A stretch of DNA of 64,000 nt from an uncultured Verrucomicrobiae bacterium (GCA_937770485.1 CALJHX010000003.1:60415-124414); one strand, 5' to 3'. Counted from the stretch's first letter, positions 1,921 through 37,805 are shown. Translations and numbers: made by a program. The notes: a model not told the origin generated them from the sequence alone.

Positions 1921-2213
1921 AGCTACCTGATGGACCTGGTGCTGACGTGGAGCAGTGCAGCCGGGGGGCTGTCAATCTTGTGAATGAGAGGGCTGGAAGT
2001 GTCGTGACTCCTTTGCATGTGGTGGCTGTGTATGGAAGCAGGGAAACAGCCGAACTGTTAATCGCCAAGGGTGCGGATGTGAATGCGAAGATAGAGCCTG
2101 AGTCGAGCACCGCTAGATTTTGTCGAATCTAAAGAACTCAAAGAAATTGCCTGCCTCCTTATAGCAAACACGGCGGCAAGACGGGTGCCGAATTGAAAGC
2201 TGAAGGGGAATAG
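1921..2213 (+). pseudogene. Ankyrin-repeat cassette pseudogene (frameshifted, lacks the signal-peptide end)
   Basis: ..GADV.., VTPLHVVAVYGSRETAELLIAKGADVNAK, then TPLDFVESKELKEIACLLI, then KHGGKTGAELKAEGE* lie in three different frames with an internal stop. Confidence 0.7.
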
Positions 2214-2285: not shown

Positions 2286-4445
2286 ATGAAAACACCACTT
2301 TCAAATGAGTGCTGTCGGTTGGTGGAGAAGTTTTGTCTTTCGGCTTTGTTCTTTTCTTTCCATTCATCGTTCGCCGAAGATTCAAAACCGGAGTCCTCGA
2401 AAAAAGCGGTGCCCATCATTAAAGACGGGGAAACACGAGTCTCGCCGAGGTTTAAAGACTCCGACATGTGGATCCGCCACGATTTATGGGTTGAAACTGA
2501 TTTTGATTCCGATGGAGACGGCAAGAAGGATCGAATGCACGTGGATGTGACGCGTCCGCGGCAAACTGAAACCGAAGGCTTGAAGGTACCGGTGGTCTAT
2601 AACTCAAGTCCGTATTTCGCTGGCACCGCCAAACCGGTTCATGGTTTCATGTGGGACCCTAGGCAAGAACTAGGTGTGGATCCACTGAAACGGAGGAAGG
2701 CTCCATCGGCTAAACGGAAGGGCGAGCGACCGATCATCTCAAAAGGACACGTCAAGGATTGGGTGCCTCGCGGCTTTGCCGTCGTTCACTCGTCTTCGCC
2801 GGGTACAGGACTGTCGCAAGGGTGTCCGACAGTCGGCGGCGATAATGAATCGCTTGCCCCCAAGGCAGTAATCGACTGGCTAAACGGACGGGCGGCGGGA
2901 TACACGACAGTGGACGGCGATCAACCTGTCACCTCATGTTGGTCAACTGGCAAGGTAGGAATGATCGGTACGTCATATAACGGCACTTTGTGCCTGGCTG
3001 CTGCAACAACCGGCGTCGATGGCTTGGAGGCAATCATCCCGGTCGCGCCAAATACATCCTATTACCATTACTACCGATCCAACGGCTTGGTGCGCTCGCC
3101 CGGCGGTTACATGGGGGAAGACATCGACGTGCTGTACGACTTTATCAATAGTGGAGATCCTAATAAACGCGAATACTGTAACTCTAATGTTCGCGATAAA
3201 GCCATGGCTAGTGGAATCGATCGAGTAACCGGTGACTACAACAAATTTTGGGCTGGTCGAGATTACCTTAACGACTTGGAACCAGTAAAAGCTGCAGTGT
3301 TAATGTCGCATGCTTTTAATGATTGGAATGTGATGCCCGAACATAGCAACCGAATCTATCAAGCGCTCAAAGAAAAAGGCGTCCCACTCCAAGTGTATTA
3401 CCATCAGGGTGGTCACGGGGGACTGCCTCCCTTCAAATTGATGAACCGCTGGTTTACACGATATCTGCACGGCATCGAAAACAACGTCGAAAAAGACGCT
3501 CGAGCTTGGATCGTCCGAGAAGGGGAAGACAGAAATAAACCGAAACCCTACGACGATTACCCGAATCCGGCGGCATCCCCTGTCACCTTTAAACTTATTG
3601 CTGGTGCACCAGAAATGGGCAAGCTGACAATTGCAACGAATTCAAATCAGGGTACCGAAACAGTAGTCGACAACTTTTCATTTAACGGCTCGGCGCTAGC
3701 CCAGGCTGATTGGACAGAGCATCGGCTAATGTATTTAACGGAAAAACTGACCGAAGCCGTACATCTGTCGGGAACACCCCGAATCACGATCAAGTTGGCC
3801 TGTAATAAAACGACCGCAAATCTGTCAATCTGGCTGGTTTCCCTGCCTTGGAACGCCAACAAGAACGCCAAGATTACTGAAAATATTATCACACGCGGCT
3901 GGGCCGATCCGCAAAACCATCGCTCGCTGACTGAAAGCGAGCCGCTAGTGCCGGGGCATTTTTACGACATGACATTCGACCTGCAACCTGATGACCAAGT
4001 GATACCTGTGGGCCAACAGATCGGGTTGATGATCATGTCCAGCGATCGTGAGTTCACATTGCGACCAGATCCTGGTACCGAATTAACAATTGACCTAGAT
4101 GAGACAAGCATTCAGTTGCCTCTAGTCGGGGGCGCCAAAGCGTTTGCAAAGGCTGTCACTAAGAAGACACAAAAAAAGAATAACAAATCCAAGAAGACTG
4201 CCTCCTCTACCGTAAGCAATAGTGTAAGTAGTAGTGTAAGTAGTAGTGTAATTTATGTGGTCAAGGATACAGATAGAGGGGAATTGCATTACAAGAATGC
4301 AAACGGAGAGGCAGTGCTTAAGGTGATAAGTTCAGATGGCAAGGTGGTTTTTGACGGGTTGATCAACACAAAGAAGCAAAAGTCCAAGGTGCCAAGAGAA
4401 GCGATGAAGTGGTACGAGGAAGTGCACAGAAAAATAAAGAAATAA
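2286..4445 (+). CDS. Xaa-Pro dipeptidyl-peptidase (S15 family, PepX/CocE-NonD type) with an unusual ~105-aa C-terminal extension
   Basis: Signal peptide; DSDGDGKKDRMHVDVTRP..LKVPVVY.SSPY; nucleophile box GMIGTSYNGT; C-terminal beta-sandwich region. The tail is a Lys/Ser-rich linker plus a small extra domain. Confidence 0.8.
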   Translation: MKTPLSNECCRLVEKFCLSALFFSFHSSFAEDSKPESSKKAVPIIKDGETRVSPRFKDSDMWIRHDLWVETDFDSDGDGKKDRMHVDVTRPRQTETEGLKVPVVYNSSPYFAGTAKPVHGFMWDPRQELGVDPLKRRKAPSAKRKGERPIISKGHVKDWVPRGFAVVHSSSPGTGLSQGCPTVGGDNESLAPKAVIDWLNGRAAGYTTVDGDQPVTSCWSTGKVGMIGTSYNGTLCLAAATTGVDGLEAIIPVAPNTSYYHYYRSNGLVRSPGGYMGEDIDVLYDFINSGDPNKREYCNSNVRDKAMASGIDRVTGDYNKFWAGRDYLNDLEPVKAAVLMSHAFNDWNVMPEHSNRIYQALKEKGVPLQVYYHQGGHGGLPPFKLMNRWFTRYLHGIENNVEKDARAWIVREGEDRNKPKPYDDYPNPAASPVTFKLIAGAPEMGKLTIATNSNQGTETVVDNFSFNGSALAQADWTEHRLMYLTEKLTEAVHLSGTPRITIKLACNKTTANLSIWLVSLPWNANKNAKITENIITRGWADPQNHRSLTESEPLVPGHFYDMTFDLQPDDQVIPVGQQIGLMIMSSDREFTLRPDPGTELTIDLDETSIQLPLVGGAKAFAKAVTKKTQKKNNKSKKTASSTVSNSVSSSVSSSVIYVVKDTDRGELHYKNANGEAVLKVISSDGKVVFDGLINTKKQKSKVPREAMKWYEEVHRKIKK
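4212..4251 (+). repeat. 12-bp in-frame tandem repeat (GTAAGYARTAGT x3.3) encoding VSNS-VSSS-VSSS
   Basis: Direct reading gives gtaagcaatagt gtaagtagtagt gtaagtagtagt gtaa, inside the C-terminal linker of the peptidase. Confidence 0.85.
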
Positions 4446-4511
4446 AAGCTGAAGGGAAATAAAACACCTTCTACTCACAACAATCCCAGCCGTGCTAATG
4501 GTTGGGTGTGG
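4445..4511 (+). repeat. Decayed cassette junction (..KAEGK stop/start region plus signal peptide) with ATG mutated to ATA
   Basis: AAAGCTGAAGGGAAATAAAACACCTTCTACTCACAACAATCCCAGCCGTGCTAATGGTTGGGTGTGG compares with the intact junction GAAAGCTGAAGGCAAATGAAACACCTCCT(A/G)CTCACAACAATCGCAGCCGTGGTGCTGGTGGGGTGTGG at 34460 and 35405. Confidence 0.75.
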
Positions 4512-4621
4512 AAAACTCAGTAAGGTATCGAAAATATGGTGCGCTCGAAAGGGCTTAAACCTTCACGCCTTTTGGTCACAACCACCTCAAGATTGCATGC
4601 CTACCAATTCCGCCATGAGCG

Positions 4622-4903
4622 TCATTGATTACGATTTTTTATCCTCCAAAGGAATGGCAGATAGGCTGTCAGTAGTCCGAAGATCAAAGTGATCAAGATT
4701 GGTGTGAAATATTCATCAAGTTCTCCAATACGGAGTGATCCAATCAGAAGGATCATTTTGAAATTTTCGACAACCCCTTGCGCGATTTCGGGGTTAGGAA
4801 GGTTTTCCTCAATCAGGTAGGCCACGCAGGCGCAGTAGACGAGGAATCCCAAAAAACTACCCCCAAAAAAACATAGTAAAACGGCTAGTCCCTTAAGCAG
4901 CAT
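4622..4903 (-). CDS. Small hypothetical membrane protein
   Basis: 93-aa ORF with 2-3 hydrophobic helices. It starts 3 nt after the stop of the collapsed cassette ORF. No recognisable family. Confidence 0.35.
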   Translation of the reverse strand: MLLKGLAVLLCFFGGSFLGFLVYCACVAYLIEENLPNPEIAQGVVENFKMILLIGSLRIGELDEYFTPILITLIFGLLTAYLPFLWRIKNRNQ

Positions 4904-4906
4904 TGA

Positions 4907-5151
4907 TCAATATACGTTTATCCTTTGGTTTGCCAGATGAGGCGCGGATGAATAATTTCCGACACGCTGCCGATTCAACGAAAACGGTAGGCAACCCGCC
5001 ATTACTCCGGTTGAGATTGTTGTGAGTAGAAGGTGTTTCATTTCCCTTTAGCTTCCAATTCTTGACCCGTCTTGCCGCCGTGTTCTCGGAGGAGATCGGC
5101 GGTTATGCCCAATAGCGATGTGACTGCGAGTGTCAGGAGTGAGCGTTTCAC
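4907..5151 (-). pseudogene. Two collapsed mini-cassettes (37 aa and 44 aa) joined by an ATGA overlap
   Basis: The minus strand reads GTG..VKRSLLTLAVTSLLGITADLLREHGGKTGQELEAKGK*. This overlaps (ATGA at 5041-5038) MKHLLLTTISTGVMAGCLPFSLNRQ..*. Signal-peptide and tail modules are present and no ankyrin repeats remain. Confidence 0.6.
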
Positions 5152-5179
5152 TGTAAGCCAACAGTCAACCTAATGAGTT

Positions 5180-5202
5180 CAGTTTTCAAGGCGTTTTAAC
5201 TG
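5180..5202 (-). promoter_or_regulatory. Second copy of the 23-nt motif (CAGTTAAAACGCCTTGAAAACTG on the minus strand)
   Basis: Lies 28 nt upstream of the GTG at 5151 on the minus strand. Confidence 0.35.
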
Positions 5203-5212
5203 CTGTCACTAA

Positions 5213-5261
5213 GGCGGGTTGGTTGCTTCCACTCAGTTTTCCATTCTTCATTCGTCTAGCC
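5213..5261 (-). repeat. Degenerate cassette 3' end plus tail relic
   Basis: The minus strand GGCTAGACGAATGAAGAATGGAAAACTGAGTGGAAGCAACCAACCCGCC aligns with GGCAAGACGGGTGCAGAATTGAAAGCCGCTGGCAACTAAACCAACCCCC at 36040-36090. Confidence 0.5.
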
Positions 5262-5332
5262 ACCCCGGTTCGGGGCTTTGATCTTTCGTTTCCAGGAACA
5301 AGCCACTAGGCTATAGGCAAGAGCACAGCTTT

Positions 5333-6059: not shown

Positions 6060-6120
6060 TTCACAGTCAAGCGGTCAAAAAGGTAATGGTTTAATTATTA
6101 CCGTATAATAAAATCGCTAC

Positions 6121-6165
6121 GGCGTTCAAGTGGTGGAGAGGGTTGGTTTAGTTTCCTTTAACTCG
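6121..6165 (-). repeat. Cassette 3' relic with an internal deletion (..SLLR-VKGN*) plus tail
   Basis: The minus strand reads CTCTTGCGAGTTAAAGGAAACTAAACCAACCCTCTCCACCACTTGAACGCC. The tail matches 36078-36105 and 61-90. Confidence 0.55.
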
Positions 6166-7944: not shown

Positions 7945-7978
7945 CAACTAACCCGTCTTGCTGCCGTGTTTGAGTGGA
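7945..7978 (-). repeat. Cassette 3' relic (..LKHGSKTG*) 43 nt downstream of the S9 peptidase stop
   Basis: The minus strand reads CCACTCAAACACGGCAGCAAGACGGGTTAG. Confidence 0.5.
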
Positions 7979-8021
7979 AACACTGCAACCATGGAGTGAT
8001 CTAGAGTGTTCAGTGAACGTA

Positions 8022-10680: not shown

Positions 10681-10745
10681 GCTCCTTTGAGCTTTTAATT
10701 CTTCAATCGCTTTGCTGCCGTGTTTGCCGAGGAGGCTGACGGTTT
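10681..10745 (-). repeat. Cassette 3' relic (KTVSLLGKHGSKAIEELKAQRS..) directly after the CotH gene stop
   Basis: The minus strand reads ..CTCCTCGGCAAACACGGCAGCAAAGCGATTGAAGAATTAAAAGCTCAAAGG. Confidence 0.6.
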
Positions 10746-13700: not shown

Positions 13701-14306
13701 AAAATCCACCTCCAACACAATCGACTCCGACATCGGGAGTTCGTCGACCCGAAACTTGTGCCGCAGCAAAACCAGTGTCGTTCCTACCGGGAGTTCGGTT
13801 GCGTCATCCTCGTCCCCAAATCCAAAGCCCGCTTGTCCAAGCTCAAACGTGCTATCATCGAAATCCAATCTCGTCCAATCGGTGGGCACTTCCCCTTTAT
13901 TTGCCGGGGCGAGATACTTCCACTTTGCGTTGGAAGGGATCAATGTTGATTCAAACGGAAGCGTTGCCACCGAGGTTCGCAATGCTTCAGGGGAGAGGGT
14001 TACTCGATCCAGCCCGGACATCCAGATAACGCGAAATCCGCCCGGCGCAATAGCGATATTTGGCAACTGCCACCCATCCGCTGGAGCCTCCGACTTGGCC
14101 AAGCGATACCCACCCAATCGGAGCACTTTGCTGCCGGTGTTGTGGAGTTCAACCCAATCGCTGCTGTTTCCCTCGTCATCCAACAAACCGTGTCGGTTCG
14201 AGGCCTGAAGTTCGTTGATCCGAAGCGAATCAATCGGTGTAAGTGGTTCGGCTGCGGCCCTCACCAGAAGCACAGCTGAGATTATTGAGAGTAGTAGGTA
14301 TTTCAT
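10761..14306 (-). CDS. CotH kinase-family protein with an N-terminal lamin-tail domain and C-terminal lectin-like beta-propeller repeats
   Basis: LTD: LRINELQASN..DWVELHNTG..LGGYRL. CotH: KKSYRTYF..LVLRANANDRP..IRDQLMRDLHKDMGG..YLLYVNGVNYGVYNVVERMDEEF..NWYAARRRPDGKWHFMCWDAEW. The C-terminus has repeated W/Y-rich blades. I prefer the start at MKYLLLSIISAVLL (14306), which overlaps the upstream stop as ATGA. Confidence 0.85.
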   Translation of the reverse strand: MKYLLLSIISAVLLVRAAAEPLTPIDSLRINELQASNRHGLLDDEGNSSDWVELHNTGSKVLRLGGYRLAKSEAPADGWQLPNIAIAPGGFRVIWMSGLDRVTLSPEALRTSVATLPFESTLIPSNAKWKYLAPANKGEVPTDWTRLDFDDSTFELGQAGFGFGDEDDATELPVGTTLVLLRHKFRVDELPMSESIVLEVDFDDGFVAYLNGIRVAELNAAKGEIQLDSLATNAREAGVADRFDLSAHASLLRRGDNMLAIAGLNSSRGSSDMSLKAGLGVLPTTLHASFRLLKEGGQLQLIGPEGRVMDSVLYDQQASDQSYGRAQTAEADWGYFLTPTPGAANDGPQQTGPLKSKLKFTPKPGFHDADVEVQITVNASTEVDIRYTQDGSEPVVKSTRVDGPVRLDKTGLFRAAAFIGRERLGEIESATYIVGRRPTLPVMSISMKPGDFYEVHMRSSATGRGSERASHLELFNTKGNRKVATGFGLRLHGGAGRRGDFKTKKSYRTYFRDVYGSPKVKYNIIPTADVKNFDKLVLRANANDRPPGGAYIRDQLMRDLHKDMGGLISNGTWYLLYVNGVNYGVYNVVERMDEEFMASHTGKGEFDIMKTGRTLLSGTRDGWDELEEFISSNDFSRPENYEMLKARVDIEDFTSYMIVNLWGQNYDWPHNNWYAARRRPDGKWHFMCWDAEWGIRGGPYKPDTDAYAFIDSGGAYGFALQRKMFAVLLGNRDYRKYYQSEVRRHLRGALSKENVLLRIRQQSDLIAAEVENTYQLRNYNIDNWRRKIKEVEEFASIGGAFFQKCTDEYFAYRNKPNSNLGLARFQNQAGYRHIVRRSSEGKWQELIAAPDEDKWTIRSLPVSPPPAGRPALYALSKDERRIVYRVTNGHLYEYSSDSNASLDGKWNGYNLTLGLPKAASDPSVVVANGKPHVFYVDEKGRVHELWYDGLWRHYPLPALPRAEGGAVAALNGSTLHVIYRSMYGVSYEQSLDLRAATKDRRQWITKRGVHRLPAAGQPFGLTVNGRRNAVFLAASDWPRRAPFVFDWNERKRVPGYRTYQGKRNTLVYAMDIGQRFKDLLSIEGTTDQVAGTFHLLSGSSNAKHYLAFRDMQGTIREYVLRGETWEMTKPTELANAPNAIGDPTGWIDGKVGTRHYIYQGEGTSVHQLTFDGNWTHRNLSM

Positions 14307-26284: not shown

Positions 26285-28222
26285 ATGAATCATCTACTAC
26301 TCAAAACAATCACAGCCTTTCTCATGGTGGAGATGAACATGTTTATTCCTGGCTCCGCCTGGGCCGTTGAGGATGGCTTGGTTTTCGATGCAAAGCTTGG
26401 ACACTACAAAGATCTTTCTTATGAAGCCTTGTCAGACAAGGGGTTACCTTGGAAGGAGCGCACACAGTTGTTTGGAGGTGAGACGCTTCATTACGGTGGT
26501 TTAACGGGGATGCAGCGCTTGGCCAAACGGAGGGAACTCGAAGTGCTACTGGCTACAATCAAGATGCGCGAAACGAGCAACTGGGCTGATCCGAAGTTGG
26601 CCGAGCGCGTTGAAACAGAAATTCACACTTGGCTTTATGCACAAATCCAAAATATGCCCGAGAAGTATGCTGAAACTAATGTTTACCCACTTAGAACCGG
26701 TGCGGTTGGATTCTTTCGCGCTTACGAAATTTTCGGAGATAAAAAATATCTCGAAGCTGGGTTGAATCGTACGGATGTAATTTTAAAAGCGCAGTGGCCG
26801 AAAGGGCATTGGCCGTGGGGGACAAGGCTTGGGGAAAACTTCGTGCGAATTCAGGATGGTTTCAACAACGAGCCGTTTTGGATCATGCTCTATGCCTACA
26901 AGTTGAGTGGTGATAAAAAGTATTTCGAATCTGCGAGGCGTTGCGCAGATGTGCTGCTTTCGTTGCAGCGCAGAAATGGCGGTTGGCCGGATCAATGGTC
27001 TTTTAACGGTAGTTCATCAGGGCATTCTGGCGTTATGCGAGGTGTGTCATTTAATGACAACGCCACGAATTCCTGCGTGCAAATGATGGTCGCCATGTAT
27101 CATATGACAGCCGACAAGAAGTATATTGCCAGATTATCTGAGCTGGGCAGATTTGTTGCCAAATCTAAAATAGGTGAAGGAATACTTGTTGGCTGGTGTG
27201 AGCAATACAATGACGACGGGAGACCGGTACGGGCTCGTCAATACGAGATCGAATTGCCTTATCCACGTGCTTTGACGCGTGGTGTTGGGCCATTGTTAGT
27301 CTGGCTTTATCTGATGGACAACAATGAGGCGCATATGGATTTGTTGAGGAGAGCCTACGCTTGGCATGAACATGTTCGCCAAGAGGAGATTAAACCGCAG
27401 GTTCTTTCACATTGGAGGGCGATGAGCCGAATGTGGTCGCCTTCACATCATTCGATGACACAAAATTATTTGATGGAATATCGGCCGGGCTGGCCGGATG
27501 CTTATTTGCCGGATGGTTCCAATTGGGGACGAGTGCTGAGCTTTCGTTTGATGCCGTGGAACCGAGTCACGCCGGAGCAAACGACAAAATACGACAGCTT
27601 TATCGACCATGGTTGGCCCCCAGTGGAGGAGTTGGCCAGAATGGCAAGTGCAAATCAGGCTCCGCCGCGCGGGTACAATATGTACGTTCATTGTCATTCA
27701 TCGATCGGTAATTCGTTGAGCGAAATCCGTCGAGCACTGCTTGAACACAAACGCGGAGGACGCGAAGGGATGCTCAAGTATTATTCAAACCCAACCAAGT
27801 ACACAGCGGATCAGTATTTGCAGGCGCGTGTCGATTCAGCTAAGCGTGCGCTCGATTTGAGGAATCGCCGTATGGCTTATCCATTTTCTAATTCTCCAGG
27901 CTATACGGGAATGGCTGCAATGAAAGATTTTAGCTTTCTCGGATCCAAAAGCCGTTGGTATGGCAAGACCGGCACAAAATGGGGTGCTGCATTTCAAAAT
28001 GTTTACCCGTCTCCCAGTGTAACTTGGTATCAATGGCAATTTATTTACGACATGAAGTTGGCGCATGGAGAAATTGATTCAGAAGCGGCCGCACGAGGTG
28101 GGCGTGGCTTTGAAACGGTCGCCAGCCAAACTCATTTGGATTCTTGGGACGTACTTGGTGAATGGGGTATGGGAGTTCTGGAAAGGGAGAACCATTTCGA
28201 CGTTCCGTTGGATAAGGACTAG
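26285..28222 (+). CDS. PL10-like pectate lyase (PelA/Pel-15E-type alpha/alpha barrel) with a cassette-derived N-terminus
   Basis: 645 aa. LQRRNGGWPDQW, VSFNDNATNS, GWCEQYNDDGRPVRARQYE resemble Pel-15E/PL10 boxes. The first 33 nt match the ankyrin-cassette start at 29/33. Confidence 0.55.
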   Translation: MNHLLLKTITAFLMVEMNMFIPGSAWAVEDGLVFDAKLGHYKDLSYEALSDKGLPWKERTQLFGGETLHYGGLTGMQRLAKRRELEVLLATIKMRETSNWADPKLAERVETEIHTWLYAQIQNMPEKYAETNVYPLRTGAVGFFRAYEIFGDKKYLEAGLNRTDVILKAQWPKGHWPWGTRLGENFVRIQDGFNNEPFWIMLYAYKLSGDKKYFESARRCADVLLSLQRRNGGWPDQWSFNGSSSGHSGVMRGVSFNDNATNSCVQMMVAMYHMTADKKYIARLSELGRFVAKSKIGEGILVGWCEQYNDDGRPVRARQYEIELPYPRALTRGVGPLLVWLYLMDNNEAHMDLLRRAYAWHEHVRQEEIKPQVLSHWRAMSRMWSPSHHSMTQNYLMEYRPGWPDAYLPDGSNWGRVLSFRLMPWNRVTPEQTTKYDSFIDHGWPPVEELARMASANQAPPRGYNMYVHCHSSIGNSLSEIRRALLEHKRGGREGMLKYYSNPTKYTADQYLQARVDSAKRALDLRNRRMAYPFSNSPGYTGMAAMKDFSFLGSKSRWYGKTGTKWGAAFQNVYPSPSVTWYQWQFIYDMKLAHGEIDSEAAARGGRGFETVASQTHLDSWDVLGEWGMGVLERENHFDVPLDKD

Positions 28223-28395
28223 TCAATTGTCACAAGGAAGTCGTTGAACTGTTGATTGCCAATGGTGCGGATGTGAGTCCGAAGGATATGAAAGATCAAA
28301 CACCACTAGATATGACCAAGCATCCCGAAACCGCTGGCCTCTTCCGTAAGCACGGCGGCAAGACTGAGAAGGAGCGGGAAGCTGAAGAAAGATGA
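28216..28395 (+). pseudogene. 3' fragment of an ankyrin cassette with no start
   Basis: The open frame reads [59 protein letters not shown]. It overlaps the stop of the previous gene, and its TGA overlaps the next ATG (ATGA at 28392-28395). Confidence 0.75.
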
Positions 28396-28886
28396 AATAT
28401 CTCCTAACTGTAACAATCACAGCTGTACTGTTGGCGGGGTGTGAGCCATTGCAGTCAAATGCAAAGTCATTACATCTTGCTGCCGAAGAAGGGGATATCG
28501 AAGCAGTAAAGGAGCATTTAGCCGCTGGAACGGATAAGAATGTGAGGGCGGGTAAGTGGGGAGACACTCCATTGCACCGTGCAGCTTTTTGGGGTTACAC
28601 AGAGATCGTCGAATTATTGATAAATAATGAAGTAGATGTGAACGCCAAGGATGACTATGGATGCACACCTTTACATGATGCGGCGGAATACTCTCACTTG
28701 GAAATCACTGAAATGCTGATTGGTAGGGGTCCGGACATGAATGCACTGGATAACAACGGTGATACACCCCTGGACTTGGCCAGCGGTAAAATAGCCGACC
28801 TCCTACGCAAACACGGAAGTAAGACAGGTGAAGAATTGAAAGCTGAAGGGAAATTAAAACGAAACAAAGCCGAGGATTTACGCTAA
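28392..28886 (+). CDS. Ankyrin-repeat lipoprotein (cassette family), extended by stop-codon loss
   Basis: [17 protein letters not shown] lipobox, about 3 ANK repeats (TPLH.AA..G..E.V.LL...G.DVNA), then [20 protein letters not shown] followed by 10 extra codons. Confidence 0.85.
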
Positions 28887-29596
28887 TTGAACTGCTGGTA
28901 GTCATCGCCATTATCGCAATCCTTGCGGGCTTGCTGTTGCCCGCATTGGCTAAGGCAAAATTTAAGGCCAAGGTGACCAACTGCACTTCAAACTACCGGC
29001 AGTGGGGAATATCTGCCAACATGTACGCCATGGATTTCGAAGACAAACTGCCTTCGTTCAAAATGCCGCGCACCGGCCTTAACCCATGGGATGTTTCCAT
29101 CGATATGGCCCCCGGCATTGAGCCGTATGGATTAACTGTGCCGATGTGGTTCTGCCCGACCCGCCCCAACGAATTCACTGATGCAGACCAGTGGGCGCGA
29201 AAAAACCTCAAGCGAGCCATCAGTTCCATCGAGGACCTAAACCGCTACTATCGGCGTAGCTATGGCAGTTTTGCCATCATCAAGCACAACTGGTGGGTGC
29301 CTCGGAACGCCGGAGGTTTCATGTTTCCTACACCAAAAATGAACGGCGACGCAAAAGACCCCAACGGATGGCCGGTCTCCCTGTCGGATTCCCGTGCAGC
29401 AGACCGTCCAATCATTTCCGATTTAACTGCTATGAAGGTGGGGGGCAAGCCAACCCCGGCCAAGGCAGGTGGCGGCCATCAATATCAAGGAAGCCTTCAC
29501 TCTGTGAACGTGGCTTTTGGCGACGGCCATAACGAGACGCGGCCCATTGCCAAAATTAAACTAAGGCACACCGGCAACTGGCATGCGTTTTATTGA
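28853..29596 (+). CDS. Prepilin-type N-terminal cleavage/methylation domain protein (pseudopilin-like, DUF1559-like), with ATG replaced by ATT
   Basis: (I)[35 protein letters not shown].. compares with paralog [23 protein letters not shown] at 51939. It has the C-terminal ..NVAFGDGH.. box. The longest ATG/TTG ORF begins only at 28931, inside the pilin helix. Confidence 0.6.
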
Positions 29597-29605
29597 CGGC
29601 ATTAC

Positions 29606-29653
29606 AAACACGGCGGCAAGAGCAAGTATAACCTGGAAGCCGCTGGGAACTAA
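29606..29653 (+). repeat. Cassette 3' relic (KHGGKSKYNLEAAGN*), 10 nt after the pseudopilin stop
   Basis: AAACACGGCGGCAAGAGC..GAAGCCGCTGGGAACTAAACCAC. Confidence 0.6.
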
Positions 29654-29815
29654 ACCACTTTCATGGCGGCACTCGGACTGCAAGGGTTCGCCGTTCACAG
29701 GCATATGAAAGTATCATTGGCAACAATCAGGAAGTTAGTCAGCGACAGGACTGACTTCCTAGAGAAAATCAAAGGCGTTGCTGTGCTGGCCAGCTTCTTG
29801 ATTTGTTGAAAACTG

Positions 29816-30295
29816 TTGCACGAGGATATACTCGCACTGTTTTTTCTGGTATGGGTTTTTATGTTCCTTGCCGTTATGATTAGCGATTTCATCAAATTGA
29901 TTTCCACCTTTGATTCCGACAGTCTTAGGGATCTTCCTGAAATTTACAGTCCAACGATTGAATTCGAAGACCCAATCAACACAGTCCAAGGGTTAGACAA
30001 CTTGTATTTGATGTTTGAAGATCTTCTTAAGGTGTTTTCTGAAATTGAGATTCAAGTCAAAGAAACCTCATCAACGGATCATACGGCCTTCGTTCGTTGG
30101 CTTATGACATATCGGTTTAGAAAAAAGAAATACTCTATCGATGGGGTAACTCATCTGAAATTCGATTCCTCGGGATTAATTTGTAAGCACAAAGATTATT
30201 GGGATGCATCTTTTCCTCTATACGGGACGTTTCCGTTGCTTGGTTCTTTAATGCGAGGCATAAAAAAAATAGCTGCTGTGAAAATCCCCCGATAG
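29816..30295 (+). CDS. NTF2/SnoaL-like fold protein
   Basis: ..IYSPTIEFEDPINTVQGLDNL..FVRWLMTYRF..GVTHLKFDSSGLICKHKDYWD resembles the NTF2-family pattern (..F.DP..G..W......G.s.l.fd..G.I..H.DYwD). The real start may be the internal M (MISDF..). AT-rich. Confidence 0.45.
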   Translation: MHEDILALFFLVWVFMFLAVMISDFIKLISTFDSDSLRDLPEIYSPTIEFEDPINTVQGLDNLYLMFEDLLKVFSEIEIQVKETSSTDHTAFVRWLMTYRFRKKKYSIDGVTHLKFDSSGLICKHKDYWDASFPLYGTFPLLGSLMRGIKKIAAVKIPR

Positions 30296-30324
30296 TTTGT
30301 ACGTTATTTATAAAATCAAGTAGA

Positions 30325-30387
30325 CAAATTGACGGACTCCTCCGCAAACACGGCGCCAAGACGAGTGAAGAATTGAAAGCTGAATAA
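30325..30387 (+). repeat. Cassette 3' relic (QIDGLLRKHGAKTSEELKAE*)
   Basis: CTCCTCCGCAAACACGGCGCCAAGACGAGTGAAGAATTGAAAGCTGAATAA, 30 nt after the previous stop. Confidence 0.65.
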
Positions 30388-30537
30388 AGGGTAGAGCCTT
30401 AAAGATAAATATTTGAGATACATGGGGACATGGTACTTTTAATAGATAAAACTTGTATTTTATTTTACAGAAAAAGTGTTTACACAACCCTTCGCTCAAG
30501 TGATTGTTCTTTACTATTAATTAACTCCAACAGGAAT

Positions 30538-33500
30538 ATGAAAAGAAAAACCATTCAATCATTTTTCAAATATTTGTACATGAGCGCACTTGTCGCGCTG
30601 GTGGCTGTCGTGACGCCGGTGACAGCCCAGACGTTGCTTGAGGAGGACTTTTCCTCCGGTTTTGAGGAGTGGACCGTGGTGCATCCCCCGGGTGCCTTCA
30701 ACGGTTCCACCCGGTGGCAGGTTGGTGCTTCGGGAGAGACGCTTTTTGAAAACAGCAATGTCCGGGCGCCCGGCTCGGCAGGAATGTTGATCAATGAAGC
30801 CAAGACCGGTGAAAACTACACCTACAAGGCGCTCCTGATGAGCGGGGATGACGACGGCATCGGGCTGGTGTTTGGCTACAAGGATGCATCCAACTTTTAC
30901 CGGATCATGTTTGCCTCCCAAGAGGAGCGTAACACGTTTCCCGGTGAGGGTTGGCTGCTGGAGCGGGTTGTGGATGGTAGTGCCATTCATCTGGGTGGGG
31001 ACGATTACAGTGAAGATTGGGAACCTGATTTCATCTATATACAAGGGTATCCGTTTGAAGTGACGATCAAAACCAAAGGAAAGAAATTGACCATTACCGT
31101 GGTAGATGATCCCGAGGAAGACGGGACCGAGTACGAACTGGTCAGCAACCTTACAATCCCCGCGGACGCGGACGGCAACGTGGGGCTTGCGAGTTGGGAA
31201 CAGGCAGGCGGAATTCCCTCCGGGTCTCACTTTAGTGATATTTCGGTGGACGGGAAGGAAGTCGCGATACCCAATCCGCTTGAGGGATGGGAGGAAGTGA
31301 TCCCCCTAAACTATGAGGAAAATGATTTCCTGGAGGGTGGGAACGAAGGCATACCCCTGTGGAGTGTTGGAATCACTACCGATTCTGTAGCTGGGGGGAT
31401 CCTGACCGAGTCGAGCAACAGTGGGTTGGCCGGCATCGAGATTGAGGGAGTGGATGAAGAATTCTACAGCAATCTCGACTGGGTGAGCGGTATGCTTGTC
31501 AAGGGTGATGCGAAGTGGAAGGACTACCGCATTTCCACAAAGCTGCATCCCTATCCCCACTGCGCCTTCACAGGATGCTGGGTCAATGGGCATGGGGTAG
31601 TTTTCCGGTACAAGGATCCGGAGAATTTTTATCGGCTCTCCTTTTCGAGTCGGAATCCTGGCGACGGCTTGCCGCGCCAGGGTGTTTCGATCCAAAAGGT
31701 GGTTAACGGGGAATGGAGCGAGGTGTTTTGGGAGAAGGGGGCGGCGTTTTCCTCCAAGAAATTTGTCCCTAGCGGCAAGGCGGACCAAAGCGAATTTAAC
31801 CTGAACATGTCGATTGTTGGCAATCAGCTGGAGTTTAGCATCGTGAACGACCCGGACGGGATGGCTAAGGTGTTTAACTATGGCCCGATCGAAATCACCG
31901 GGGTTGATTCAGGCAAGGTAGGTTTTTTCAGCTGGTACCAGCACAAGCTGGACATCCATCATATCAAGGTGGAGGAGATTGCCGGAATGCCCTTTGAGGT
32001 GTTCAGCAATTTTGGAAAACCGAGTCCACCGGCCGGTTTGACCAACTTCGAGCCGGGGACAAAGGTGCTTGCGACAGTTCCCAGTCCTATTGTGGATCCT
32101 CCGGGATTTCGCCGTAAGGTGACCGGTTGGAGCGGGACTGGCTCTGCTCCCAAGGGGGGCATCTGGTTTTTGCCGGGAAACCCGAGGCTGTCATTCGTCA
32201 TCAACCAGGCCTCCTCGTTGACTTGGAATTGGAAGACTGAGGTCAAGGTCAACATTACTGCGGATGGAGGAGGGAAGGTAACCGGTGGAAGTTCCAAGTG
32301 GTACAAGGAGGGATCCAAGTTGATCGTCACTGCGGTACCCAGTACTGGCAATATGTTTGATGGCTGGTACGGAGCTGTCGCAAGTAAAGAGCGCAAGCTG
32401 ACTGTGTATACCGACCGTCCGCTGGATTTGATTGCTGCTTTCCGTCCGGACTCGGATCGGGACAAGATGGACGATGATTGGGAGAAGAAATATATTGGCA
32501 ACCTTAACGAACAAGGGAGTGGCGACTTTGACGGGGACGGGGTGAGCAACATGGACGAGTACCGTCGTCGCACCAACCCGGCGGCGGAGGAGGAGCTGGT
32601 GTACGAGGTGCCCTCCAACTGGAAGAATCCAAATGTATCCAATCCCTATACGGTCGGGCGTATGGTCGTGGCGGACTTCGGCAAGGGCTACAGTGGTATC
32701 TGGGAGAACAGCGGAACTGGAATCGCTGCTAGCAGCGACGAATTTGAATTTATTGATTGGCGCGGGCCAAAGGTCGTTCTGAAGGACTCGGTCTGGGAGG
32801 AGGACTGGAAGGATGGCGTTTACGAAGCGACCTTTGTGGTCGGAGATTCCGACACGAGCTGTATTTATTTTCGCTATCAGGATGAGGACAACTGGTACCG
32901 GGCCTCGATTTCAGGGAGAGAAGGAGACGGAATTCAAAAGACTGACAAATGGGGCTCCTATACTGTCAATGGTGTGACTGCGGCGCAGATTGGCTTAACC
33001 ATCCAGAAGAAGGTAAATGGGGTGTATCAGTTAATTGAGGAATACGACGATTATATGATTCCTGATCCGGAGGATGACACGCTGAAGATCATCAAGTTGA
33101 AGGTCTCCGCGAATGGGAATTCCTTCAAGGTGCAGGCTATTCCCTACGACCCGATTAATCTGAAAGACTTTGATGATGATGAAGCCTCCGAGGAAGTGTC
33201 GTTCAATGATGAAGCTCTGGCAACCGGCTGTGTGGGAGTTGGCTTTGCTTATCAGGGTAATGGTTTTAACTGGTGTCGATCATGTCCTGGGGGACCGGCG
33301 GACACGGCGACAGAAAATATCCCAGTTGGTTCTGGTGTTTTGTTAAATGATTTATCCATCCAAGTGAACGAAAAAATCGTCTTTCGTGACTCATGGACCT
33401 TCCACGACACTCCAACAGGTCTGCCCGTTGGTTGGTTCAATCCTTTTGCGAGCCAAGAAGGCTCCATGGCAGGAGAATGGGTGCCTAGCGCTCACGGTGG

Positions 33501-34311
33501 ATTTATCCAGATGTCCCCATTTTTCCTGCCAAGCCTCACGAAAAAAGACATCGCTAAGGCAGACGGCGAGGGTCCTGTACTACTAGCTCCGCTGGTAAAA
33601 GAGCAGGATTTTGTCCTTGAGCTAGGCTTGCTGTCACACAACGCCAATAATTTGCTAACAACAGTCGACGGTCTCGGTTTTGTCTATGATTACATCGATG
33701 AAAACAATTTTGCCCGTGTGCTTTTCGTGAATCCAAAGGCGCTCAACCTCGAAGGCGGGTCAACAATACCTCGGGGCATTAACATAAGTCGCAAGATCCA
33801 GGGACAGTGGCGTGATATCATTGTTGGTGATCTATCCTTCACCTATCAGCGAGGAAGACCTTTCGATGTTGCATTTACGGCTGAAAAAGGGAATTATCAT
33901 TTAGTGATAAAAGAACACGACCCAATGTTCGTTTGGAATAGTTGGGAAAGGGTTTACGTTCCGGCTACACCGAACGAGATCAAAAAAGGTCCAAAGTCCG
34001 CAGAATTGCACTGGAGTGACAAAGAAATCACCAGTGGAACTCGATATGGGCTAACTACCTGGGGTTCAAGATATGCCCATTTTCTTCATGCTAGAGCTTA
34101 CTCACTTGATGGCAAGAATTCACAGCCGTCCAAACCACCCGTTCTTGCCGTTTCACGCAACGGTAACAAAGTGAGCATTACATGGGAGGGCGAAGGCACT
34201 TTGGAAAGTGCGGAGCAGATCGGAGGTCCGTGGTCTGAGGTTCGTGGCGTTTCCAGTCCAACCACTGTTCAACCTGTTGCCAAGCAAGGTTACTACCGTT
34301 TGAAGAGATGA
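30538..34311 (+). CDS. Large secreted protein with four ConA/LamG-like beta-sandwich modules, an InlB-B-type repeat, a TSP3-like Ca-binding linker and a shared C-terminal module
   Basis: I prefer the start MKRKTIQSFF.. with a signal peptide. The signature recurs four times: GIGLVFGYKDASNFYRIMF, HGVVFRYKDPENFYRLSF, SCIYFRYQDEDNWYRASI, LGFVYDYIDENNFARVLF. Also present: GGGKVTGG..GSKLIVTAVPSTGNMFDGWYG and DSDRDKMDDDWE..GDFDGDGVSNMDEY. Confidence 0.7.
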   Translation: MKRKTIQSFFKYLYMSALVALVAVVTPVTAQTLLEEDFSSGFEEWTVVHPPGAFNGSTRWQVGASGETLFENSNVRAPGSAGMLINEAKTGENYTYKALLMSGDDDGIGLVFGYKDASNFYRIMFASQEERNTFPGEGWLLERVVDGSAIHLGGDDYSEDWEPDFIYIQGYPFEVTIKTKGKKLTITVVDDPEEDGTEYELVSNLTIPADADGNVGLASWEQAGGIPSGSHFSDISVDGKEVAIPNPLEGWEEVIPLNYEENDFLEGGNEGIPLWSVGITTDSVAGGILTESSNSGLAGIEIEGVDEEFYSNLDWVSGMLVKGDAKWKDYRISTKLHPYPHCAFTGCWVNGHGVVFRYKDPENFYRLSFSSRNPGDGLPRQGVSIQKVVNGEWSEVFWEKGAAFSSKKFVPSGKADQSEFNLNMSIVGNQLEFSIVNDPDGMAKVFNYGPIEITGVDSGKVGFFSWYQHKLDIHHIKVEEIAGMPFEVFSNFGKPSPPAGLTNFEPGTKVLATVPSPIVDPPGFRRKVTGWSGTGSAPKGGIWFLPGNPRLSFVINQASSLTWNWKTEVKVNITADGGGKVTGGSSKWYKEGSKLIVTAVPSTGNMFDGWYGAVASKERKLTVYTDRPLDLIAAFRPDSDRDKMDDDWEKKYIGNLNEQGSGDFDGDGVSNMDEYRRRTNPAAEEELVYEVPSNWKNPNVSNPYTVGRMVVADFGKGYSGIWENSGTGIAASSDEFEFIDWRGPKVVLKDSVWEEDWKDGVYEATFVVGDSDTSCIYFRYQDEDNWYRASISGREGDGIQKTDKWGSYTVNGVTAAQIGLTIQKKVNGVYQLIEEYDDYMIPDPEDDTLKIIKLKVSANGNSFKVQAIPYDPINLKDFDDDEASEEVSFNDEALATGCVGVGFAYQGNGFNWCRSCPGGPADTATENIPVGSGVLLNDLSIQVNEKIVFRDSWTFHDTPTGLPVGWFNPFASQEGSMAGEWVPSAHGGFIQMSPFFLPSLTKKDIAKADGEGPVLLAPLVKEQDFVLELGLLSHNANNLLTTVDGLGFVYDYIDENNFARVLFVNPKALNLEGGSTIPRGINISRKIQGQWRDIIVGDLSFTYQRGRPFDVAFTAEKGNYHLVIKEHDPMFVWNSWERVYVPATPNEIKKGPKSAELHWSDKEITSGTRYGLTTWGSRYAHFLHARAYSLDGKNSQPSKPPVLAVSRNGNKVSITWEGEGTLESAEQIGGPWSEVRGVSSPTTVQPVAKQGYYRLKR

Positions 34312-34477
34312 TCGAAATGGGCCACTGTTAGTCAAGCATGGGAATTGGGATGGGCCTCTTTGCACAGGCGGTTTATTCAGTTTACAACACCATAAGTGGA
34401 GACGAAATAAATCCGCCGAGCTTTTCCGCAAACAAGGTGGTAAGACGGGTGAAGAATTGAAAGCTGAAGGCAAATGA
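34304..34477 (+). pseudogene. Start-less ankyrin cassette relic overlapping the stop of the large gene and the start of the next ankyrin gene
   Basis: The frame reads ..[41 protein letters not shown]. Its TGA overlaps the ATG at 34474. Confidence 0.65.
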
Positions 34478-35421
34478 ATCACCTCCTACTCACAACAATC
34501 GCAGCCGTGGTGCTGGTGGGGTGTGGGTCGAGTGTGGATATTTGGATAGGTGCGCAAACTGGAAATATCGAAGCAGTCAAACAGCACTTGGCTGATGGGG
34601 TTGATGTAAATTCTAAGAGTGATATTGGTAGGACGCCACTTGATGTAGCAATAGCTTTTAAACAGCCCCTAATCACTGACCTACTCCGTAAACACGGCGG
34701 CAAAACGAGAGATCAACTAAAAGCAGCTGAATCGATTGTAGTGGCTGTTGAATTAGGAAACATTGAAGCTGTTAAACAGCATTTGAATGGTGGAACCGAG
34801 GTGAATGCGAAGGGTGGGACTGGAAGGACTCCTTTGCATTTGGCGGCTATTGAAGGCCACAAGGGAATCGCCGAACTGCTTATCGCCGAAGGTGCGGATG
34901 TGAATGCGAAGACTAAAGATGGCAAATCACCGCTAGATGAGGCCGTCAACCCCTTCTACAACAAAACCGAAATTGCTAATCTCATCCGCAAACACGGTGG
35001 CAAACATGGAACGATTCATAGTGCGGTTGGCGGTGGAGATGTCGAAGCCGCAAAGGAGTTCTTGGCTGCTGGTGCTGATGTGAATGTGAAGGATAAGCGT
35101 GGGTTCACTTCTTTGCATTGGGCGTCTATTTCCGGTCACAAGGAGGCTGTCGAACTGCTAATCGCCAAGGGTGCGGATGTGAATGCGATGAGGGGTGGTG
35201 GAGGGACTCCTTTGTCTTATGCGTCTTCTTGGGGTCACGAGGAAATCGTCGAACTACTTATCGCCAAGGGTGCGGATGTGAATGTGAAGGATGCTTTTAG
35301 CGAAACCCCACTGGATGTTTCTACTCATCCAGATAACCCAAATGCCTCCGCAGAAACCGCCACCCTTCTCCGCAAACACGGGGGCAAGACCAAGAAGGAA
35401 CTGGAAGCCGCAGGCAAATGA
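34474..35421 (+). CDS. Ankyrin-repeat lipoprotein composed of three fused cassette bodies
   Basis: MNHLLLTTIAAVVLVGC lipobox. Internal tail motifs: TDLLRKHGGKTRDQLKAAES and ANLIRKHGGKHGT. Terminal motif: ATLLRKHGGKTKKELEAAGK*. Confidence 0.9.
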   Translation: MNHLLLTTIAAVVLVGCGSSVDIWIGAQTGNIEAVKQHLADGVDVNSKSDIGRTPLDVAIAFKQPLITDLLRKHGGKTRDQLKAAESIVVAVELGNIEAVKQHLNGGTEVNAKGGTGRTPLHLAAIEGHKGIAELLIAEGADVNAKTKDGKSPLDEAVNPFYNKTEIANLIRKHGGKHGTIHSAVGGGDVEAAKEFLAAGADVNVKDKRGFTSLHWASISGHKEAVELLIAKGADVNAMRGGGGTPLSYASSWGHEEIVELLIAKGADVNVKDAFSETPLDVSTHPDNPNASAETATLLRKHGGKTKKELEAAGK

Positions 35422-36077
35422 AACACCTCCTGCTCACAACAATCGCAGCCGTGGTGCTGGTGGGGTGTGGTGAGTCGTCAATTCACAAAGCTGCCGAAGA
35501 AGGAAAGATTGAAGCCGTTAAACTGTATTTGACTGCTGGTTCAGATATTGAATTGAAATGTACTACATGTGGAGGCACAGCGTTAAGTCATGCAGCGCAT
35601 AGAGGTCATAAGGAAATAGTCGAATTACATATATCACAGGGAGCAATAATTAAAGCAAAGGGCAAGCATGGAGAGACTCCTATACATCAGGCAGCTTTAG
35701 CTGGTCACAGAGAAATTGTTGAACTCCAAATCGACAAAGGTGCCTACGTTAATTGGAAGGATAAAGTTGAGGCGACCCCGTTACATCGAGCGGCTCAAAG
35801 AGGTCATAAGGAGGTTGTCGTACTACTTATAAAAAAAGGCGCAGAAGTAAACACGAATGATATTCTTGAACAGACCCCTTTGCACTTTGCATCAAAACTC
35901 GGCACGAAAGAAGTTACTGAACTGCTTATGCAAAAAGGCGCGGATGTAAATGCGACAAAAGATGACGATAGCACGCCACTAGATATGGCCATCAAACACA
36001 AACGCACCGAAATCGCCAACTTCCTCCGCAAACACGGCGGCAAGACGGGTGCAGAATTGAAAGCCGCTGGCAACTAA
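35418..36077 (+). CDS. Ankyrin-repeat lipoprotein (cassette family)
   Basis: MKHLLLTTIAAVVLVGC lipobox, about 5 ANK repeats, ANFLRKHGGKTGAELKAAGN*. The start overlaps the upstream stop (ATGA). Confidence 0.9.
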   Translation: MKHLLLTTIAAVVLVGCGESSIHKAAEEGKIEAVKLYLTAGSDIELKCTTCGGTALSHAAHRGHKEIVELHISQGAIIKAKGKHGETPIHQAALAGHREIVELQIDKGAYVNWKDKVEATPLHRAAQRGHKEVVVLLIKKGAEVNTNDILEQTPLHFASKLGTKEVTELLMQKGADVNATKDDDSTPLDMAIKHKRTEIANFLRKHGGKTGAELKAAGN

Positions 36078-36131
36078 ACCAACCCCCTCCACCACTTGAA
36101 CGCAGCAGGGCTGTTGTTCCAGACCGTGCAC
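36078..36131 (+). repeat. Conserved cassette tail (ACCAACCCCCTCCACCACTTGAACGC..GTTCCAGACCGTGCACA)
   Basis: Matches 61-118 on the plus strand and 6121-6150 on the minus strand. Confidence 0.6.
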
Positions 36132-36166
36132 AGCCCCGTCAGGCTGATAGCTTTTTGCGGCAACAG

Positions 36167-37715: not shown

Positions 37716-37805
37716 TGGCGGAAGGGGAGGGATTCGAACCCCCGGAACGATTGCTCGCTCAGTGCTTTTCGAGAGCACCCCGTTCGACCACTCCGGCACC
37801 CTTCC
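37716..37805 (-). tRNA. tRNA-Ser (anticodon CGA), class II with a long variable arm and encoded CCA
   Basis: The minus strand reads GGAAGGGTGCCGGAGTGGTCGAACGGGGTGCTCTCGAAAAGCACTGAGCGAGCAATCGTTCCGGGGGTTCGAATCCCTCCCCTTCCGCCA. It has a 7-bp acceptor stem, anticodon stem GTGCT/AGCAC with loop CT-CGA-AA, and T-loop TTCGAAT. Confidence 0.9.

Follow-up and report, generated by a model that had tools for sequence, protein, structure and literature searches.

In a 64,000-nucleotide stretch of DNA from an uncultured Verrucomicrobiae bacterium (GCA_937770485.1 CALJHX010000003.1:60415-124414; hereafter the window, with positions counted from its first letter), three ankyrin-repeat lipoprotein genes lie on the plus strand at 28392..28886 (gene 1), 34474..35421 (gene 2), and 35418..36077 (gene 3). 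The start codon of each gene overlaps a stop codon as ATGA, and a first-pass annotation had described their two ends as near-invariant modules enclosing dissimilar ankyrin interiors. Why are the ends of these genes alike at the nucleotide level, while the interiors are not? I analyzed the 5′ module (M5) and the 3′ module (M3) in the window and in other genomes. The answer that I prefer, at a probability of roughly 60%, is that genes 1 to 3 are members of a very large hypervariable family of binders in pelagic marine Verrucomicrobiota, Pedosphaera-like relatives of SCGC AAA164-E04, and that the ends of the family are homogenized by recombination in addition to being constrained in their nucleotide sequence.

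The M5 and M3 modules of three ankyrin lipoprotein genes

The three open reading frames (ORFs) exist as first described and encode ankyrin proteins of 164, 315, and 219 amino acids, respectively, each with a lipobox. Their Pfam Ank and Ank_2 matches have E-values from 1e-24 to 1e-48, and the Ank_2 bit scores of 86.7, 146.2, and 161.3 lie above the gathering cut-off of 27.3. A lipobox cysteine (..LVGC or ..LAGC) closes each signal peptide. The signal sequences, including MKHLLLTTIAAVVLVGC and MNHLLLTTIAAVVLVGC, were taken straight from the ORFs; they have an N-terminal positive residue, a hydrophobic stretch, and a lipobox of the form [LVI][ASTVI][GAS]C at about residue 15-35. The three proteins are predicted to be lipoprotein substrates of Lgt and signal peptidase II.

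M5 consists of about 50 bases coding for the signal peptide MKHLLLTTIAAVVLVG(C), and M3 consists of about 70 bases coding for a fixed C-terminal cap. Species-representative genomes were scanned once with a 23-base M3 pattern (20 specified bases), which matched at least 106 stretches. Among the matches listed, 70 of the 121 M3 copies end with the ATGA stop/start overlap. The conservation of M3 climbs sharply about 33 bases 5′ of the scan pattern and drops after ATGA. Since shuffled sequence gave no module match, the matches in the window are not due to chance. The uniformity claimed for the two ends holds in part. The M5 copies of genes 2 and 3 (34474-34525 and 35418-35469) each match the consensus at 52 of 53 bases and share an exact 38-base core (at 34489 and 35433). 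This core is absent from gene 1, whose diverged M5 (28392-28443, found with nhmmer) matches at 39 of 53. M3 is present in all three genes but matches the consensus at only 45 to 54 of 60 bases: 54 in gene 1 (28791-28855), 45 in the terminal copy of gene 2 (35355-35420, coding for ..KTKKELEAAGK before the stop), and 51 in gene 3 (36010-36075, the variant coding for ..AELKAAGN with a TAA stop). The exact 3′ peptide given in the first-pass annotation is coded solely by a non-coding remnant at 34418-34477.

The ATGA overlaps were confirmed at 28392-28395, 34474-34477, and 35418-35421, where each ATG overlaps the TGA of a preceding ankyrin 3′ end. However, the ends preceding genes 1 and 2, which had been regarded as cassette ends, belong to pseudogene remnants and not to genes. 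The remnant before gene 1 (28229..28395, plus strand; ..KEVVELLIANGADV..TPLD..) has a diverged M3 end (nhmmer 28328-28365, 44/60). The remnant before gene 2 (34370..34477, plus strand) is an orphan ankyrin 3′ end with a well-kept M3 (nhmmer 34411-34476, E=5e-18; 53/60), and it lies behind the gene for a secreted protein of 1257 amino acids (30538-34311).

Proteins of this family consist of one to three units, each ending with ..LLRKHGGK.., and within a unit the ankyrin framework is constant, the binding surface varies, and the C-terminal cap is fixed. Gene 2 is made of three fused units, with internal M3-like unit ends at 34672-34729 and 34970-35003 (nhmmer). The repeat framework is nearly fixed (GHKEIAELLIAKGADVNAK). 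In total, 290 distinct 33-residue repeats of the canonical pattern were recovered, TPLH and GADVN being the motifs by which ankyrin repeats are recognized. Entropy exceeds 3 bits at positions 13, 10, 3, 14, 2, 5, and 1 only, which correspond to the canonical target-binding face of ankyrin repeats. Since the framework is constant and the entropy peaks lie on the binding face, the family looks like a repertoire of envelope-anchored binders, and its members are predicted to be hypervariable periplasmic or surface proteins. Gene 3 has more than 7000 homologues, yet the best one is 52-54% identical, and an exact-sequence look-up of its 219-residue product gave no record.

Are the ends conserved as DNA or only as protein? 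Identity was calculated at 4-fold third codon positions, restricted to columns with identical amino acids. It is 0.876 for M5 and 0.769 for M3 (at positions outside the forced pattern), while it is 0.42 for the ankyrin interiors, where 0.30 is expected from codon usage alone. A prepilin leader, which is invariant in protein sequence and lies beside the same junctions, served as a control and gave 0.42; M5a under the same scheme gave 0.84. True orthologues between the window and its relatives share 0.54-0.85 of the 4-fold sites. Thus, the first refuting condition given in the first-pass annotation, ends no more conserved at synonymous sites than the interiors, does not apply (0.88 and 0.77 against 0.42 in the interiors).

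The M5 consensus, whose sampling did not depend on the scan pattern, shows no difference over 36 bases among eight metagenome-assembled genomes (MAGs). These include SP274 and Arabian9_MAG_18, whose orthologues share 0.54 and 0.70 of 4-fold sites with the window. The M3 consensus is alike in seven of the eight. The mismatches to M3 at the first, second, and third codon positions are 0.052, 0.040, and 0.119 in intact copies (mostly third positions), and 0.075, 0.083, and 0.106 in remnants (nearly even). Orphan M5 copies are as consensus-like as the M5 copies on intact genes. I read these patterns as probable selection on functional copies plus conversion that would pull every copy toward the majority sequence.

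Dispersed copies, signs of recombination, and alternative explanations

Nearly all of the listed M3 matches come from marine Verrucomicrobiota MAGs (Pedosphaera-like, Verrucomicrobiales, and SCGC AAA164-E04) of the ETNP, Arabian Sea, ALOHA, and Saanich samples. Many are found at the ends of contigs or within 0.5-1 kb contigs that were assigned to implausible phyla, the signature of a repeat that breaks short-read assemblies. Among the matches listed, most M3 copies are orphan remnants and not gene ends: 60 of the 121 are remnants, 29 terminate ankyrin ORFs that look intact, and 28 are at the edge of a sequence. The 70 ATGA ends are followed by M5 in 27 cases, by the prepilin leader in 14, and by other sequences in 29. 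In 469 kb of loci, there are 96 full M5 copies, 46 behind M3 and 50 not. The ORFs headed by M5 are ankyrin ORFs in 30 cases, non-ankyrin ORFs in 28, and short decayed ORFs in 30. Among the non-ankyrin genes are those for sulfatases, PSCyt proteins, and a pectate-lyase-like protein, so the modules are not restricted to ankyrin proteins. The M3 pattern was found in just two short viral contigs, and carriage of the modules by phages was therefore set aside.

The neighbors of module-bearing genes differ between relatives. In the window, the gene for a pectate-lyase-like secreted protein of 645 amino acids (26285..28222, plus strand; Pfam Pec_lyase) begins with a diverged M5 in its first 49 bases (26285-26333, coding for MNHLLLKTITAFL; nhmmer E=1.4e-6). 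Its 93%-identical orthologue in ETNP1_MAG_26 (locus L083) has a perfect M5 and sits at an ATGA-coupled position behind an ankyrin gene. The window sequence upstream of the gene is unrelated to L083, with the segment 25963-26271 standing where L083 has the ankyrin gene. Downstream, homology extends past the stop codon and into the ankyrin remnant, fades across M3, and stops at ATGA, beyond which the genes are unrelated. Thus, the gene has a different neighbor on each side in the two genomes, and homology stops at ATG(A). The M5 and M3 patches of the window and L083 differ by about 25%. A gene for a DPP-IV peptidase is flanked by junction remnants in both the window and locus L052. Behind this gene, L052 retains a fuller M3-ATGA-M5 remnant than the window does at 7951..7984; at the position of window 10684..10743, it has an ankyrin and M5 remnant that has decayed differently. 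It follows that each lineage lost its ancestral ankyrin genes independently of the other.

Proteins of the family are also mosaic. Protein P0078 combines a gene-2-like N-terminal half (80-100% identical) with a P0018-like C-terminal half (93-100%). In the gene 2 product, the N-terminal 120 residues share 80-100% identity with P0078 and the C-terminal part only 37-67%, as is expected of a mosaic protein. On a shorter timescale, strain L112 is 99.7% identical to the window (35 mismatches in 13.3 kb) but has six substitutions within 24 bases (28805-28828) of the gene 1 M3. Five of the six restore the family consensus, with changes of CTA to CTC, GGAAGT to GGCGGC, and ACA to ACG. I read this patch as a short gene-conversion tract. 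The idea of concerted evolution or cassette shuffling, which the first-pass annotation had put forward, is thus supported by the conserved ends, variable interiors, conversion, and mosaics. It is not supported by cassette variation among strains, and the presence of the modules on non-ankyrin genes goes beyond it.

How could this state have arisen? Ectopic homologous recombination and short-patch gene conversion among the dispersed copies may overwrite them toward the consensus. Recombination at the modules and within the ankyrin framework would fuse units, build mosaics, change neighbors, and leave truncated remnants, and the outcome would be rapid gene birth and death. A nucleotide-level constraint on functional copies is added to this scheme, because conversion alone does not explain why diverged genomes have the same consensus. 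The constraint most likely arises because M3 and M5 together form the unstructured purine-rich translation start region of the downstream gene, with termination-reinitiation at AUGA. The stability of the consensus may reflect either such nucleotide-level selection or the exchange of modules between lineages.

Several observations weigh against this scheme. No gain, loss, or reordering of cassettes was found among 16 same-population contigs from other samples (identified by exact-protein look-ups, with names that include Fram Strait long contigs and Tara), which are 98.8-99.8% identical to the window and all collinear; thus, rearrangement must be slow on strain timescales. The copy-number or order variation expected by the first-pass annotation was therefore not seen at this level, and the recombination signal consists of the L112 patch, the neighbor changes at ATG(A), and the mosaic proteins. 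A clean conversion tract was seen once only, and its donor copy was not found among 124 loci. Module identity is 0.773 within and 0.765 between MAGs, and 82 of 300 permutations gave at least the observed value. Genome-specific homogenization is thus not seen in this comparison, which is limited by the unreliable MAG labels of short repeat contigs. Moreover, neutral concerted evolution would let the consensus drift, and the constraint has to be assumed for this reason. The breaks of synteny are not all at modules (e.g., the 5′ side of the gene at 15398-18124), and the exact 20-base pattern biases the M3 sample toward well-kept copies.

Might the modules instead be kept solely as RNA or DNA elements, serving as a standard translation-initiation and secretion leader to which recombination is inessential? 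A variant of this explanation invokes a shared small RNA (e.g., one pairing with AUGAAACACCUCCUACUCACAACAAUCGCAGCCGUG) or an RNA-binding protein that would co-regulate the secretome. Either form would suit the identical M5 consensus in eight MAGs, some of which have orthologues differing at 30-46% of 4-fold sites, and the presence of M5 on unrelated secreted proteins. About half of the M5 copies have no M3 upstream, some of them following a leader of about 75 bases found at 13 places, and the sequence surrounding the start codon is rich in purines and has no structure. I nevertheless consider the explanation unlikely. Orphan M5 copies on decayed ORFs are kept as well as those on intact genes, M3 remnants without a coupled gene are well kept (e.g., 30327-30384), and the mismatches of remnants are flat across codon positions. 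In addition, the clustered L112 patch runs toward the consensus, and conservation extends about 57 bases 5′ and about 50 bases 3′ of the start codon, far beyond the usual initiation region. No Rfam match for the modules was found in the window.

A somewhat more doubtful alternative is that the genes are dedicated mobile cassettes, with M3-ATGA-M5 being a recombinase attachment site (as in integrons) or a small non-autonomous mobile element. The sharp boundaries of the modules, the neighbor changes where homology stops at ATG(A), the dispersal of copies behind many unrelated genes, and the abundance of solo remnants agree with this, as do the assemblies broken by the repeat, with many matches found on contigs no longer than about 1 kb or at the very end of a contig. 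However, in about 48 kb around the locus, no integrase, transposase, reverse transcriptase, or other recombinase-type gene was found among those called genes that have a Pfam hit, several small ORFs having none. Neither the junction nor M3 by itself folds better than shuffled sequences (z = 0.25 and 1.18, with inverted repeats checked by eye only). M5 and M3 occur independently of each other in about half of the cases, the arrays are static in the 16 strains, and viral contigs gave only the two matches.

It is very improbable that the genes are young duplicates whose interiors have since been diversified by positive selection. The M5 copies of the tandem pair at 34474 and 35418 are identical at 51 of 53 bases, and variability is concentrated on the binding-surface positions, as this would predict. 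However, the synonymous sites of the interiors are near saturation (0.42 against 0.30), whereas those of the ends are at 0.77-0.88; since positive selection does not erase synonymous identity, the explanation is contradicted. Moreover, the best homologue of gene 3 is 54% identical, and the same modules occur on non-homologous proteins. Finally, an artefact of assembly or binning, in which chimeric joins through the repeat created the cassettes, is scarcely credible: the repeat does break short-read assemblies and leaves tiny contigs in implausible phyla, but the 16 collinear contigs are independent, come from different samples and assemblers, and include ones of 170 kb and 565 kb, the longer being FRAM_RAS_F4_07_1819_3-c000000000114 of ERZ24888605.

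Module copies, neighboring genes, and junctions in the window

With nhmmer profiles built from related loci, 14 M3 and 7 M5 copies were found on both strands within positions 1-36100, and the coordinates of the first-pass annotation take in only part of the feature. Most of the copies are orphan, decayed remnants directly 3′ of unrelated genes, largely those for secreted enzymes. The genes fronting remnants are those for PQQ/BamB-like, S15 peptidase, DPP-IV peptidase, CotH, pectate-lyase-like, prepilin-like, and SnoaL proteins, and the 1257-residue secreted protein. The segment 25963-26271 upstream of the pectate-lyase-like gene is a dispersed non-coding repeat, with 78-82% matches to loci L087, L027, and L102.

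Gene 1 has lost its stop codon at the module end. It is followed by a gene for a prepilin-type protein (28853..29596, plus strand) with an N-methylation motif and DUF1559-like features (Pfam N_methyl, TIGR02532). At their junction (28853-28856), a G-to-T change at 28855 turns the TGA of gene 1 into TTA and the ATG of the prepilin-type gene into ATT. Thus, the gene 1 ORF continues for ten codons to a TAA. The relatives L014 and L068 have ATGAAAACGAAACAAAGCCGAGG at this junction, in which the ATG of ATGA is kept. Since the change was found in all six strains sequenced, it is not a sequencing error. The prepilin-type gene may be either a pseudogene or a user of the rare ATT start codon. Directly behind it lies a short M3 fragment (29605..29643, plus strand; blastn, nhmmer E=0.018), and the segment 29605-29777 matches locus L002 at 78%. 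The orphan M3 remnant at 30300..30387 (plus strand; ..IDGLLRKHGAKTSEELKAE and a stop; nhmmer 30327-30384, E=4e-17) follows a SnoaL-like gene (29816-30295), and no gene is coupled to it.

Behind gene 3, the segment 36078..36156 (plus strand) has a conserved post-stop module (AACCAACCCNCTCCACCACTTGAACGC) followed by a terminator-like hairpin (36131-36146) with a T-run, where the run of co-directional genes ends. The sequence AACCAACCCNCTCCACCACTTGAACGCC is found directly 3′ of the TAA stop of ..AAGN-type ankyrin ends in 28 copies in the loci and the window together; those in the window are at 60-100 (plus strand), 36068-36105 (plus strand), and about 6100-6140 (minus strand).

Toward the left end of the window, a frameshifted ankyrin pseudogene behind a PQQ/BamB-like gene ends in M3 (1960..2211, plus strand; ..KHGGKTGAELKAEGE and a stop; nhmmer 2145-2211, E=2e-16). 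Within 130 bases of this pseudogene (1965-2093), 3 of 10 same-population strains carry a haplotype of six single-nucleotide polymorphisms and one indel, a density more than tenfold above background. This haplotype is suggestive only, and may be a second conversion tract or ordinary linked polymorphism. The end of the S15 peptidase gene (2286-4445) carries a decayed junction (4443..4510, plus strand), in which an M3 tail is followed by an M5 with ATG changed to ATA (nhmmer M5 4462-4510, E=2e-12). The length of this peptidase varies from 703 to 715 residues among strains, apparently in a serine-rich C-terminal stretch. On the minus strand, a complete M3-ATGA-M5 junction (4992..5104; seen in the sequence and with nhmmer) heads a short decayed ORF (MKHLLLTTISTGVMAGC...), and a decayed M3 remnant lies at 5228..5269 (nhmmer E=0.005). 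The M3 fragment at 7951..7984 (minus strand; nhmmer E=1.6e-5) is directly behind the DPP-IV peptidase gene (8022-10583, minus strand), and the remnant at 10684..10743 (minus strand; nhmmer E=9e-9) is a decayed M3 between the CotH and DPP-IV genes. An M5-like signal-peptide module at 14258..14306 (minus strand; MKYLLLSIISAVLL; nhmmer E=1.7e-8) likely marks the true start of the CotH gene, with its ATG at 14306. This ATG forms an ATGA overlap (14303-14306, minus strand) with the TGA that ends the upstream esterase gene. Thus, the same junction grammar joins non-ankyrin genes.

The conserved leader of about 75 bases (TTGCGGCAACAGTTAAAACGCCTTGAAAACTGCG..CAACGGGRTGACAGT..CTCGCT) lies directly 5′ of the ATG AAA TCA starts of M5-type signal peptides. 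It is found in the window at 2234-2290 (plus strand) and about 5150-5215 (minus strand), and in 11 more copies in the loci (e.g., L068, L024, L086, and L091). It resembles a shared promoter or 5′ untranslated region module; a simple sigma-70 scan found nothing there.

A simple consensus scan found no plus-strand promoter-like site at the junctions, with counts at chance level, and a terminator-like plus-strand match near only one junction (28914-28928, in the start of the prepilin-type gene). A role of the junctions as promoters or terminators was rejected on these grounds. An upstream-ORF leader peptide translated from orphan M3 was also rejected, since an in-frame ATG is present in about 12 of about 45 copies, no more than expected. 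The sparse promoter and terminator sites, together with the terminal hairpin, would fit a long co-directional transcript with termination-reinitiation at AUGA.

Do the neighboring genes point to another function? They encode hydrolases, prepilin-like proteins, SnoaL, and large secreted proteins, and no toxin domain or secretion-system gene, one of which would be expected beside a polymorphic toxin/immunity cassette with an ankyrin immunity protein, was found among the nearby genes with Pfam hits. A comparison with the Legionella and Coxiella Ank effectors gave best scores of 51-102 bits, against NCBIfam equivalog cut-offs of 450-1400, and these are generic repeat matches. The Sec/lipobox signal argues for an envelope localization, rather than a type IV effector role, of the predicted proteins. 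PADLOC gave only generic ankyrin matches to defence proteins (PDC-M72A, Ankyrin, and the MzaA N-terminus), and none for the three neighbors scanned. The first-pass annotation had mentioned that bacterial ankyrin proteins are often implicated in interactions with hosts or eukaryotes, but none of the present observations connects these proteins with a eukaryotic host.

Elsewhere in the window, the region 42096-46289 encodes a protein of 1397 amino acids with six near-identical tandem repeats of 657 bases, each coding for a CBM9 carbohydrate-binding domain; a Tara contig assembled from short reads has the array in collapsed form. ARAGORN predicted a tRNA-Leu(GAG) at 4537-4622 and a tRNA-Ser(CGA) at 37716-37805, both on the minus strand, and neither is listed in the Rfam gathering-threshold scan.

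Comparison with known systems

In the literature searched, no description of this ankyrin family was found. The nearest precedent is the lpl tandem lipoprotein cluster of Staphylococcus aureus, in which a conserved nucleotide segment inside each ORF is a recombination site (Tsuru and Kobayashi 2008, PMC2568036). Both families consist of lipoprotein paralogues, with a conserved segment that serves in lpl, and may serve here, as a homologous recombination site shuffling the variable parts, and in both the ORF and the evolving unit have different limits. However, the architecture is a mirror image: here, the conserved segments are the ORF ends with the ATGA junction, and the interior is variable. 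The copies are also dispersed across the genome and across species, mostly as remnants. Rearrangement between strains, as in lpl, was not seen among the 16 collinear contigs, and differences first appear at about 93% identity.

Host-associated pathogens provide further parallels. The Erp and Mlp lipoproteins of Borrelia, with their "upstream homology box", and the vlp, vsp, and vsa families of Mycoplasma have a near-identical 5′ region and signal-peptide sequence on different lipoproteins, a feature ascribed to recombination. The leader that precedes some M5 copies fits this pattern. Those families are plasmid-borne or confined to a single locus, and some use dedicated site-specific inversion. 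In contrast, the present family belongs to a free-living pelagic bacterium, its 5′ module is also found on sulfatases, and a second module lies at the 3′ end. Neisseria pilE/pilS, Borrelia vlsE, and Anaplasma msp2 likewise have conserved flanks, a hypervariable core, and short-patch conversion. However, these antigenic-variation systems have one expression site and silent truncated donor cassettes, while the intact copies examined here each come with a start codon and a signal peptide of their own and are placed in a row with other genes.

The constant framework with variability at repeat positions 2, 3, 5, 13, and 14 resembles that of DARPins, which are designed consensus ankyrins. It also resembles RARP-1 of Rickettsia, a periplasmic bacterial ankyrin protein whose ankyrin domain likewise lies behind a Sec-type signal (bioRxiv 10.1101/2022.02.23.481736). 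The present family differs in having thousands of members and a lipobox.

Integron arrays share with this locus the co-oriented short genes, the recurring junction, and the neighbors that vary between relatives. In contrast to integrons, the junction here is coding sequence with no significant fold and is not attC, and no integrase was found among the genes with Pfam hits. It is possible, if rather unlikely, that this lineage uses a set of nucleotide-standardized adaptors (the leader of about 75 bases, M5, and the M3-ATGA coupler) as a "plug-in" interface for secreted-protein genes, carrying expression and export signals and serving as portable homology arms. If so, ankyrin units and unrelated enzymes could be swapped, fused, and moved within and between related species without a dedicated recombinase, and the adaptor set would be the homology-based counterpart of an integron. 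If the modules carry expression and export signals, they would also be a natural standard part for secreted proteins in the phylum.

Why does this matter? The modules describe how abundant uncultured ocean bacteria, from samples whose names span Fram Strait, Tara, ETNP, the Arabian Sea, and ALOHA, may build and turn over a huge repertoire of envelope-anchored binders. In practical terms, the repeat fragments short-read assemblies and scatters the pieces to wrong bins, and gene callers mis-annotate the remnants. Of all the parts of a protein, the signal peptide is usually one of the least conserved. In this case, a single sequence coding for a signal peptide is the same, silent sites included, on secreted proteins that are unrelated, and its consensus is constant across genomes in which up to 46% of the silent sites of ordinary genes differ. 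The evolutionary mode itself is known, since other bacterial lipoprotein families behave similarly, although it is unusually widespread here. What is unusual is the nucleotide-standardized signal-peptide module shared by unrelated proteins and species, the 3′ cap with its ATGA coupler, and the excess of well-kept orphan copies.

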